64,000 nt of DNA from Eledone cirrhosa (taxonomy: Eukaryota). Location of the stretch: contig OZ024749.1 of assembly GCA_964016885.1 (NCBI GenBank), positions 46,252,001-46,316,000 on the forward strand. The letters run 5' to 3'. The notes beneath the pieces are model-generated. The model was not told the DNA's origin. It made no database searches and saw nothing but the letters and a program-made list of their open reading frames with translations. A program made the translations under genes and the position numbers. How positions within the stretch are numbered: position 1 is the first letter of the stretch; each line of letters starts with the position of its first letter. Below are positions 2,815-43,497 of this stretch, piece by piece.

Positions 2815-2997
2815 ATATACACACTTATATCTATCTATCTAACTATATATATATATAAGTAGATAGAAAGGATATTTAATTTGTTGGAAATTCATCAAAT
2901 ATAAATGTTTATAACTGATTCAGAGCACTCGACAGTTTCCTGGAGTTAATATTCAATGATATTAAATAAATGGAAACTATATTTATAAAACCATATT

Positions 2998-3059
2998 TAT
3001 TCTATTATATATATTTCAAGGGTACCACAAACTTTGGGACGCTTTCATCAGATAAAATA
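2998..3059 (-). ncRNA. Minimal type I hammerhead ribozyme (left arm of palindrome, more decayed stem II)
   Basis: Minus strand: tattttat-CTGATGA-aagcgtcccaaagtttgtggtaccctt-GAAA-tatata-TA-atagaata. Palindromic tatata in stem III; stem II has mismatches. Confidence 0.7.
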
Positions 3060-3178
3060 CAAAGTGTGTTTTATAAATGTTGACATAGCCAAGGAAACAT
3101 ACCTTATCAGTTGAATTTCCCTTGGATAGTCAAGGGAAATTCAACTTGGCTATGTCAAAATTTATAAAACACACTTTG

Positions 3179-3240
3179 TATTTTATCTGATGAAAGCGTC
3201 CAAAAGTTTTTGGTACGCTTGAAATACATATAATAGAATA
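3179..3240 (+). ncRNA. Minimal type I hammerhead ribozyme (right arm of palindrome 2955-3282)
   Basis: tattttat-CTGATGA-[aagcgt ccaaa agtt tttgg t acgctt]-GAAA-tacata-TA-atagaata. Stem I is 8 bp (one G-U), stem II 11 bp with a 1-nt bulge, stem III minimal. Predicted cleavage after AUA at 3232. Confidence 0.8.
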
Positions 3241-3278
3241 ACATGGTTTTATAAATATAGTTTCCATTTATTTAATAT

Positions 3279-3339
<61 letters not shown>

Positions 3340-22029: not shown

Positions 22030-22220
22030 TGTCTGGGGACGTGTATAGGAGATTTCAGTGTAATATCATTTTAATGCACAACGAAAGTTTCTGTTAAAAC
22101 CCACCTCATAGCTGTAGTATTATGCTTAATATCACAGCTATGAGCAGGATTTTCACAGAAACTTTCGTTTTTGCATTAAAAGGGTATTGCACTGAAATCC
22201 CCTATACACGCCCCCAGTCA
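22030..22220. repeat. Older, imperfect inverted repeat (~90-bp arms)
   Basis: ctggggacgtgtatagga...ctcatagctgt / acagctatgag...cctatacacgcccccag. Confidence 0.9.
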
Positions 22221-22996: not shown

Positions 22997-23356
22997 TTTG
23001 TAGTGGCTATTGTGTTGCTGGCTGTGGTGGTTTGGAACGTATGTGGTTAATTTGTAGTAAAGGTTTGTAGTGGCTATTGTGTTGATGGCTGTGGTGGTTT
23101 GGAACGTATGTGGTTAATTTGTAGTAAAGGTTTGTAGTGGCTATTGTGTTGATGGCTGTGGTGGTTTGGAACGTATGTGGTTAATTTGTAGTAAAGGTTT
23201 GTAGTGGCTATTGTGTTGATGGCTGTGGTGGTTTGGAACGTATGCGGTTAATTTGTAGTAAAGGTTTTTAGTGGCTATTGTGTTGATGGCTGTGGTGAAA
23301 CCACCACAGCCATCAACACAATAGCCACTATGTGGTTAATTTGTAGTAAAGGTTTG
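22997..23356 (+). repeat. 67-bp minisatellite, ~5 units, the last disrupted by an inverted copy
   Basis: Unit starts at 22997, 23064, 23131, 23198 and ~23265. Confidence 0.95.
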
Positions 23357-36947: not shown

Positions 36948-37125
36948 TTGGCAGTATTGGTAGAAAGGTCGGACATGCTTTCCAGCGTAGTTACGTCCCT
37001 TTACGACCTGAGTTCAATTCCTGCCGAGGTTAACTTTGCCTTTCATCCTTATGGGGTCGATAAAATAAAGTACCAGTAATGTACTTGTTAATTGCTGGCC
37101 TTGTGGCAAAAGTAGAAACAATTAT
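36948..37125 (+). mobile_element. SINE copy (preceded by a decayed SINE head at ~36836-36912)
   Basis: Matches the family consensus. Confidence 0.85.
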
Positions 37126-37181: not shown

Positions 37182-37910
37182 TTCTACATGTGAGTATGTA
37201 TGCATGCCTATTTGTACGTGTGTACGTATGAATGTGTTAATCTATATGTTTATAAAGGTGTGTATGCATATATGCGTATATATATATATATATATATGCA
37301 TGTATCTACGTATGTGTGCATATATGTATAGGTTGTCTCTATTATATTTGTGTAGATGTAAGTCTCCAGCGCTTAATTTCTTTATCTGCCCCCCCCCCTC
37401 CCCTCCTCTATATCTCTTTCTTTCTCTCTCTCTCGCTCTCAATGCCATCATCTCTCTATTGACTTCTGTCTGTCATACACTCTTTCTCTCTCTCTTTCAT
37501 TGTCTTTCTCTTACCATTCCCCTTCTCTCTCACTCTCTCTCATTAGCTCTGCTAGTCAACCATTCACGCCATTTTACAACGTCGTAAATCGCCGCCAAAC
37601 TTCACCATAAATTTTCATGGCCACAAAACGATTTGTTCTTTCCGGTCATCTCATTTCATCAGTCTAAGCTGTCTGTCCTTTGTTCTCTACGTGTGTATGT
37701 ATGTATGTTTGCAAGTATGTATGTATGTATGCATGTATGCAATTATCTATTTATGTATGTATGCAAGTATGTTTGTATTCATATATGTATGCAGACAATA
37801 TGTGTGTATGTGTATATATATATATGTGTATGTGCGTGTGTGTGTGTGTATATATATACGTATATATATATATGTATATATATATATAAATATATATATA
37901 TGTGTGTAAA

Positions 37911-38064
37911 TGAAGTAATTCCGTCGGAAAAGTCCAGGAAAAAAGAGTGCTCTATGTAGGTAACAGAGCTTAATAGTTATGTAATAAACAACATAAGGCA
38001 ATTATTCCATTTACCAGTGGTTTCTTAAAAGCCAAAAAATTTGCTTTCAATCATCAGAATGAAA
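37911..38064 (-). mobile_element. Hammerhead-containing putative Penelope-like 3' end (pLTR), family B
   Basis: Ribozyme followed by ~95 nt and then a TA/CA tract; homologous to 42132-42240 (aagta.ttccg...ggaaaa.agagtgctctatgta...aacaaca.aag...tccatt.acca). Confidence 0.55.
38005..38064 (-). ncRNA. Type I hammerhead ribozyme (left arm of palindrome 37973-38158)
   Basis: Minus strand: tttcatt-CTGATGA-ttgaaagcaaattttttggcttttaa-GAAA-ccactgg-TA-aatggaa. All core nucleotides are intact. Confidence 0.8.
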
Positions 38065-38066
38065 AA

Positions 38067-38126
38067 TTTCATTCTGATGATTGAAAGCAAAGTTTTTTGC
38101 TTTTAAGAAACCACTGGTAAATGGAA
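38067..38126 (+). ncRNA. Type I hammerhead ribozyme (right arm of palindrome 37973-38158)
   Basis: tttcatt-CTGATGA-[ttgaaagcaaa gttt tttgcttttaa]-GAAA-ccactgg-TA-aatggaa. Stem I is 7 bp, stem II 11 bp, short stem III cc/gg. Predicted cleavage after GUA at 38119. Confidence 0.85.
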
Positions 38127-38151
38127 TAATTGTCTTATGTTGTTTATTACA

Positions 38152-38195
<44 letters not shown>

Positions 38196-38224: not shown

Positions 38225-38410
38225 CGGTGGATTGGCACTATCGGTAGAGGGTCGGACGCCATGCTTTCAAGCATAGTTACGTCCCTTTACGATCTGAGTT
38301 CAAATCCCGCCGAGGTTGACTTTGCTTTTCATCCTGACGGGGTCGATAAAATAAAGTACCAGTAATGCACTGGGTAATTGCTGGCCTTGTGCCTAAAGTA
38401 GAAACAAGTA
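38225..38410 (+). mobile_element. Full-length SINE
   Basis: Matches the family consensus. Confidence 0.9.
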
Positions 38411-42131: not shown

Positions 42132-42240
42132 TTAAGTATTTCCGAAGAAAAAGCAAAGGAAAATAGAGTGCTCTATGTATAATACACAGTTGTTTCATTA
42201 GAAAGTGAACAACACAAGATATAACTACTCCATTACCAAA
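42132..42240 (-). mobile_element. Second copy of the family-B 3' end, truncated near the ribozyme cleavage site
   Basis: Aligns by eye to 37911-38016; keeps tggTAatggag (3' part of the hammerhead); abuts (TA)n. Confidence 0.6.
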
Positions 42241-42954: not shown

Positions 42955-43172
42955 ATATATATACATATATTAGAAATATAAGCTATCGCCGTATTTTGAC
43001 TAAAGAAATTATTTAGCCTGATAGTGGGGTTCAGAACCCTCGGAGAAATGGAAAAAGATGAGTATTGTATGTCAATTCTCATCTTTTTCCATTTCTCCGA
43101 GGGTTCTTAACCCCATCATCAGGCTAAATAATTTCTGTAGTCAAAATACGGCGATAGCTTATATTTCTAATA

Positions 43173-43185
<13 letters not shown>
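42955..43185. repeat. Inverted repeat (~113-bp arms, 5-nt loop) ending in (TA)n
   Basis: attagaaatataagctatcgccg...gatgagtattg tatgt caattctcatc...cggcgatagcttatatttctaat. Confidence 0.95.
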
Positions 43186-43220
<35 letters not shown>

Positions 43221-43266
43221 ATATATATATAATATAAGATCAAAAGATGGTTAAAGGAGTTCCATG

Positions 43267-43337
43267 TATTTTATTATGCGCATTTCAAAAACAAACATCA
43301 TCATGCAATAATATTTGTGTTTTCATCAGATAAAACA
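43267..43337 (-). ncRNA. Minimal type I hammerhead ribozyme
   Basis: Minus strand: tgttttat-CTGATGA-[aaacacaaatattatt gcat gatgatgtttgttttt]-GAAA-tgcgca-TA-ataaaata. Stem II has 16 positions with 3 G-U pairs and 1 mismatch; stem III is the palindrome tgcgca. Confidence 0.85.
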
Positions 43338-43497
43338 GGAGAACATGATATGAAGGCTAAAAAACACTTGTGGATAGTGCAGTTTTAAAGCAACATATCA
43401 TGTATACTCCAGTATACTCCAGTCCTACAAACTGTAGAGTGCTTCTTATCCGATATCTGCATTGCTTTATTGTACTACAATAAAACTCACCTCCTAC

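Follow-up and report, generated by a model that had tools for sequence, protein, structure and literature searches.

A head-to-head hammerhead palindrome in Eledone cirrhosa as a probable integration stump of a high-copy Penelope-like retroelement

The 64,000-nucleotide stretch of Eledone cirrhosa DNA analyzed here (contig OZ024749.1, positions 46,252,001 to 46,316,000; hereafter, the window) contains at 37907–38158 a palindrome with a predicted hammerhead ribozyme on each strand. The center of the inverted repeat falls between 38065 and 38066, and the arms, 37973–38064 and 38067–38158, are paired at 89 of 92 positions. As the first-pass annotation of this DNA reported, just 2 nt lie between the hammerheads: the arms are separated by a loop, AA, and the first 7 nt of each arm form the 5' side of stem I. 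Throughout, offsets are counted outward from the first stem I base, which is +1 at 38067 on the plus strand and at 38064 on the minus strand. The short arm (38067–38158, plus strand) extends from +1 to +92, the fixed short terminus of the element end as judged from the pairing and from the inverted-arm ends in sampled copies, and stops within (TA)n, the target microsatellite that forms the right flank (38159–38194). The long arm, on the minus strand, comprises a portion common to the short arm (−2 to +92; 37973–38066) and a one-sided 66-nt tail (+93 to +158; 37907–37972), which in full-length copies is 5' leader reaching the ORF start at +280. Beyond the tail the sequence turns into (CA)n/(TA)n, the left flanking (TA)n/(TG)n microsatellite (37840–37906). 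The excess of about 60 nt on the left and the TA-rich microsatellite beyond both arms were correctly noted before; the measured excess is 66 nt, or 62 nt if counted to 37911. With microsatellite on both flanks, a target duplication is unreadable.

The apical AA (38065–38066) represents two further T's of a natural T6 run on the minus strand. The left arm retains five of the six natural T's before CATT and starts at −2, compared to +1 for the right arm, so the join lies inside the T run, where the two arms meet without an insert. Three positions distinguish the arms: offset 26, where loop II begins; offset 32, in distal stem II; and offset 67, past the 3' end of the ribozyme. As previously described, the differences lie outside the core, in distal stem II, loop II and the tail. 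In family tallies, all three resemble rare or minority variants. The probability that three mismatches spare the 15-nt core is 0.58, and that they spare the core together with stems I and III, 0.25; accordingly, the sparing of the core is expected by chance and does not point to selection.

Both hammerhead motifs are complete and are predicted to fold into three-way junctions. Read outward, each arm consists of a 7-bp stem I, CUGAUGA, a 10–11-bp stem II, GAA, a near-palindromic stem III and GUA, with the predicted cut after +53. The plus-strand motif (38067–38126), a predicted type I hammerhead by motif, fold and the layout of the Hydra hammerhead table in PMC8557442, includes stem I (38067–38073 with 38120–38126), the core (38074–38080), stem II (38082–38105), GAA (38107–38109) and stem III (38110–38118), with the predicted cut between 38119 and 38120. 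The second predicted motif (38005–38064, minus strand) would be cut between 38012 and 38011; its stem II is weakened by the rare change at offset 32 (38033), to −5.4 from −9.6 kcal/mol for the common form. A short near-palindromic stem III combined with a conserved core and three helices is characteristic of dimer-dependent type I hammerheads, and the relevant part of PMC4209133 describes weak, dimer-dependent activity. The monomer folds are not unusual compared to shuffled sequences (z-scores of only −1.6 and −0.1), and the modeled homodimer, a double hammerhead, is predicted at −32.4 as opposed to 2 × −11.7 kcal/mol, in agreement with the earlier suggestion that the fold is suited to a dimer. 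Transcribed in full, the palindrome is predicted to fold into a single extended hairpin (−140.9 kcal/mol), in which both ribozymes would be locked if the RNA were read through. In an alignment of 10 hand-picked ribozymes from the window family and a sister family, 89% of the cells are paired versus 36–52% in slid controls, and three stem II pairs are changed on both sides; because these sequences are related, the evidence is weak. Among the 61 Rfam hits for the stretch there was no hammerhead, only microRNA-type hairpin matches below threshold.

The window holds several other features of interest. Another head-to-head hammerhead pair, from a different family, lies at 2955–3282 (cores at 3187, plus strand, and 3051, minus strand). 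On the minus strand, a solitary hammerhead end (43200–43340; core at 43329) represents a third type and ends in (TA)n, and a decayed tail occupies 42134–42240, with 42134–42179 related to the tail of the palindrome's family. Additional palindromes at 42955–43185, 22030–22220 and 23269–23330 contain no hammerhead core detectable by pattern search. The segment 61254–61811 (minus strand) matches the full-length element described below at 68%, in the element's microsatellite-rich 3' region, and is perhaps an old remnant. Copies of a short dispersed repeat, presumably SINE-like, are present at 38225–38410 and 37000–37120, and the same repeat lies beside many of the loci retrieved genome-wide.

A search of the genome (3.0 Gb, 1,796 contigs) connects the palindrome to a protein-coding retroelement. 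The left arm has many copies that are 97–99% identical, and the tail yields 2,595 exact 28-nt matches. Upstream of one copy (L060) there is a fragment encoding a reverse transcriptase (RT) and endonuclease, along with the 3' region and the same hammerhead. Used as a query, this fragment retrieved open frames of 713–715 aa that start about 260 nt past the hammerhead core (L135, L137–L139, L141, L144–L148); in L141, the ATG is at +280 from the start of stem I. Tandem copies with a period of 4.25–4.44 kb (L135–L141) form pseudo-LTRs that hold the hammerhead, and the window-type end sequence occurs both before and after an intact RT-endonuclease ORF elsewhere in the genome. The 713–715-aa protein contains the motifs RMRWK, DKT, YRDD, CxCx5C, CxxC and CxH, with no CCHH, and, near its C-terminus, a GIY-YIG-like endonuclease motif, VVY..YVG. 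The end is thus attached to one ORF in which RT motifs are combined with those of a C-terminal GIY-YIG endonuclease, as in endonuclease-bearing Penelope-like elements, and shares with these elements the inverted 5'-truncated copy and a tail on one end only, resulting from two fixed 3' termini. The RWK, DKT, CxxC and CxH motifs, the CxCx5C linker and the missing CCHH match the Hydra clade as characterized in the pertinent sections of PMC8557442, and insertion into (TA)n and a canonical hammerhead are likewise features of that clade; by its protein motifs, the element would probably be placed there. A Pfam search recognized no RT or endonuclease family in the 713–715-aa ORF and nothing meaningful in a second ORF of 832 aa. 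The search for protein homologues gave 1,328 hits among 7,997 scored, and the 120 listed are 41–59% identical, 118 of them unnamed and two hypothetical.

Within the 64-kb window, no ORF remnant of either the 713–715-aa or the 832-aa family was found. Over the end region, the nearest intact-ORF copies share about 90% identity with the window arm and therefore represent a sister sub-lineage, not a proven donor of this locus. The initial view of the palindrome as a cassette of ribozyme plus tail holds in part: the hammerheads do point outward, with their downstream sequence embedded in TA microsatellite, but the unit is not self-contained, being the end of a protein-coding retroelement.

The 832-aa ORF, which adjoins one copy, was considered as the parent and rejected: its own ends differ, and nine of the 10 extended loci are without the window-type hammerhead. 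It belongs to a separate, Hydra-like family with a protein 35% identical to that of the 713–715-aa family. This family has many intact ORFs, often head to head (e.g., L075, L086, L095–L104), and a short end that resembles that of the window family; a pattern search near its ends detected no intact hammerhead core. The full-length units of the 713–715-aa family (L141:4622–4718, L060:4113–4210 and others) bear a second, degenerate hammerhead end (82–90% identical), located 400–500 nt past the ORF and followed by 1.0–1.5 kb of microsatellite-rich sequence and then by the intact end. In the copies read, GUA is replaced by GUG, and this second end resembles one captured at an earlier time and since carried along by the family.

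The family is new, whereas its kind and layout are already known, as comparison with the corresponding portions of the published descriptions indicates. One close likeness is to the Hydra clade of Penelope-like elements with a C-terminal endonuclease (Craig et al. 2021, PMC8557442; Hydra-1_Obim, Penelope-13_HM), which has the same protein motifs without CCHH, the same (TA)n target and, like the window, hammerheads whose near-palindromic stem III measures 4 bp and is closed by a 1-nt loop. The supplement of that paper includes Hydra hammerheads of the same build, one cephalopod family among them, and in Penelope-13_HM a copy is likewise inverted and 5'-truncated, the hammerhead being listed for each strand. 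However, the unit is about 4.3–4.4 kb here versus 'generally <3 kb' in the Hydra clade, owing to the long microsatellite-rich 3' region with the degenerate hammerhead copy; the tail is 62–66 nt as opposed to 30–40; and stems I and II are unlike those of the Hydra-1_Obim hammerhead in the table. The head-to-head junction, the shorter inverted copy and the one-sided tail are also shared with Penelope insertions that combine an inverted pseudo-LTR and a tail (Arkhipova et al. 2013, PMC3846280; Cervera and de la Pena 2014, PMC4209133). In the sections compared, PMC3846280 describes truncated copies in inverted orientation, palindromes at the junctions and a tail on one side only, and PMC4209133 reports opposite-strand hammerhead pairs some 100–700 bp apart; in contrast, the hammerheads of the palindrome studied here, separated by 2 nt, stand at the lower limit of a continuous range of distances. 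PAc Poseidon of the green anole (Frangieh et al. 2024, PMC11167929, as far as the portions compared go) likewise has AT-rich targets and two fixed 3' termini that delimit a tail beyond the hammerhead, but belongs to another clade, and its ORF starts inside the hammerhead rather than 280 nt downstream; furthermore, its mechanism was demonstrated in vitro, whereas ours is inferred. Finally, non-LTR retrozymes, in the available portion of bioRxiv 10.64898/2026.07.22.740005, also carry a type I hammerhead akin to that of Penelope-like ends. They are non-coding head-to-tail tandem repeats, whereas the window holds an inverted pair derived from a coding element, so we rejected this identity.

An unbiased sample of the family consisted of the first 100 tail matches on one contig (C1), picked regardless of the ribozyme, and for each copy an inverted arm was sought within 1.3 kb upstream (200 nt only for L203); L163 and L164, likely duplicates of one insertion, and L203 were kept in the counts. 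An inverted arm was present in 42 of the 100 copies, with spacers from −114 to +434 nt. The 3' termini are fixed: short arms end at about +92 (approximately +88 to +92 in all but one of the 42 inverted arms) and long arms at +154 to +158, with five of the 100 long arms continuing into the leader. Within a locus, the arms differ by a median of two positions, compared to seven between loci (24 loci), and in 17 of the 24 the partner arm is the nearest relative or tied for nearest. The greater similarity of arms from the same locus suggests that both arose in one event. In an automated alignment, 13 of the 42 copies have a short arm that extends over 10 nt beyond the long arm in the 5' direction, and five copies show the reverse.

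Mapping of the apex across the family, proposed in the first-pass annotation as a check, showed that its position is not fixed at stem I, and neither is it random, with a hot spot at −38. Among the 79 mapped arm ends (three of them scored at −110 only because the reference ended there), 23 fall at −36 to −39, six of these due to a natural palindrome at about −33 rather than to the −38 site, and seven at −53 to −55. At many −38 junctions there is an extra G. Position −39 is naturally T, and 430 matches have another letter there; by eye count, the 100 matches listed comprise 45 with C from one untruncated sub-lineage, 46 with G, six with A and three further C. Inspection of 30 non-T loci revealed 14 junctions, 13 of which have G (binomial p = 2e-6 at 30% expected), and the sequences joined to the G are varied: inverted arms, an ORF fragment, bare (TA)n. 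The unbiased sample contains the same extra G in L166, L184, L189, L198, L214 and L215, and an A in L228. At cut-site junctions, by contrast, G makes up nine of the 30 non-A letters among the 100 matches listed (eye count), which is near background, so the extra G is specific to the −38 site. The ends at −53 to −55 form a second cluster (L172, L175, L176, L182), with an extra G in L175 and L176, and might reflect a second RNA start.

Full-length L1 and SVA insertions, as described in the relevant parts of PMC9341517 and PMC3287187, show the same extra G at a recurrent 5' end with a pyrimidine-purine step, and the untemplated G was attributed there to copying of the mRNA cap. The setting differs, in that here the G occurs in a Penelope-like element, at the −38 site and not at the window apex. 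Penelope start sites have been located in the pseudo-LTR (PMC8557442, in the section on this subject), and a literature search of incomplete coverage found no report of a cap-derived G in Penelope-like insertions. From the DNA junctions, the RNA of the element likely starts, capped, at −38. We lean toward the broader proposition that the junctions of this family are a DNA record of a capped RNA start 38 nt before the hammerhead, and that many short stumps are complete copies of the leader, made from two internal starts on uncut RNA.

Five of the 79 ends coincide with the predicted cut (+53 to +55), suggesting that some templates may have been cut; L142, an intact-ORF copy, starts near +52. A cleavage footprint was nevertheless rejected in the wider counts, where 143 ends at +52 to +54 compare to 94 at +47 to +49 and 166 at +58 to +60 (three positions each), without clear enrichment. 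The patterns used also catch the sister family, the control positions hold microhomology hot spots of their own, and at least six of 30 loci viewed are small duplications or deletions rather than true ends; there may be a modest excess at +54. That no clear excess is seen agrees with the in vitro work on the anole element, for which the parts of PMC11167929 consulted describe two internal RT start sites that define the tail, uncut RNA as the main template and a ribozyme that needed protein.

Taken together, these observations lead us to interpret the locus, with a probability of roughly 0.9, as a head-to-head stump from a Penelope-like retroelement that has a high copy number and Hydra-clade motifs, the stump likely being left by one integration into a TA microsatellite, its apex coinciding with stem I likely by chance. 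Under the model we envisage, the element protein would nick the (TA)n target, and reverse transcription would begin at two fixed leader sites, +92 and about +158, on RNA uncut by the ribozyme. The cDNA products would extend toward the cap at −38, often stop early, and then be joined head to head. At the window locus, both products may have halted in the U6 run, about 37 nt before the cap, and been joined through A/T microhomology; alternatively, a longer palindrome might have later lost its center. Elsewhere, ORF or leader pieces are joined directly to a truncated end (L012, L216, L359), which suggests template jumps during integration.

The same element could also have produced the second arm by fold-back, that is, self-priming of a single cDNA at local microhomology, as was proposed for Penelope junction palindromes in the corresponding part of PMC3846280. 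The near-identity of the arms within a locus is compatible with this route, as are apexes on short natural palindromes: TTTTAAAA at about −33 (L163, L164, L185) and stem III (L162). However, fold-back of the long arm cannot yield the 13 of 42 copies in which the short arm extends more than 10 nt further 5', fold-back of the short arm cannot yield the tail, and the fixed stop at +92 is left unexplained. The occurrence of both arrangements, 13 copies with the short arm and five with the long arm further 5', favors two priming events; because later deletions can mimic this pattern, and probably account for some of these copies, it is not decisive. At the window locus alone, twin priming and fold-back are indistinguishable; we regard fold-back as the less probable route, with perhaps one chance in four.

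Much less probable, in our judgment, is that the ribozyme itself sets the apex, through RT stalling or RNA trimming at the 5' edge of stem I, and that the palindrome is a minimal two-strand cassette, either selected or working as a unit. This possibility is raised by the exact coincidence at the window locus, on which the first-pass annotation had based its claim of a special apex, and by 13 loci genome-wide with head-to-head hammerheads 0–6 nt apart, seven of them perfect. Moreover, between the window family and its sister family, stem II is changed on both sides in three of 10 pairs, implying that the fold matters to the master elements. The surveys nonetheless largely refute it. In none of the 42 inverted copies do both arms end at −3 to +2, and only four of the 79 mapped ends lie there. 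The 13 tight pairs belong to 282 with spacers of 0–30 nt, and another 175 have spacers of 31–60 nt; the density per nucleotide is lowest at 0–6 nt (about 1.9, versus 11 at 7–30 and 5.8 at 31–60). Only two of the 13 are from the window family, the window locus and one other; the remaining 11 are from the sister family, in which the upstream sequence is itself a short A/T palindrome. Single-arm ends at −4 to +1, at most 153 over five positions with T-run length variants included, are no commoner than at the positions compared above, a rough comparison, given that the patterns catch different families. In addition, being on opposite strands, the two ribozymes are predicted to be locked in the hairpin upon read-through. 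The apex is therefore not special at the edge of stem I, and a class of fixed-apex ribozyme cassettes does not hold up across copies. Because sister copies join elsewhere, most often about 38 bases earlier, the join at the motif edge in the window is likely due to chance. The sister family (L033–L037, L046–L050, L052, L054–L058) has the same stem I and tail, a longer and different stem II and a T-T mismatch in stem III, and is the source of most perfect-apex palindromes.

An assembly or library fold-back artefact is highly improbable: although microsatellite palindromes are prone to artefacts and no contig from four public runs covers the entire stretch (a neutral observation), the arms differ at three sites and stop at the two fixed termini of the family, and the layout recurs at hundreds of loci with different centers.

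The integration stump at 37907–38158 is, in itself, ordinary retroelement debris. The value lies in the family, which, with thousands of young copies and many intact ORFs, constitutes a large natural record of Penelope-like integration. From the extra G, an exact RNA start at −38 can be predicted, and this cap signature is the part most worth following. If it is what it appears to be, stumps with a complete leader would argue for a sense, capped template and twin priming, and against the published model of antisense self-priming.
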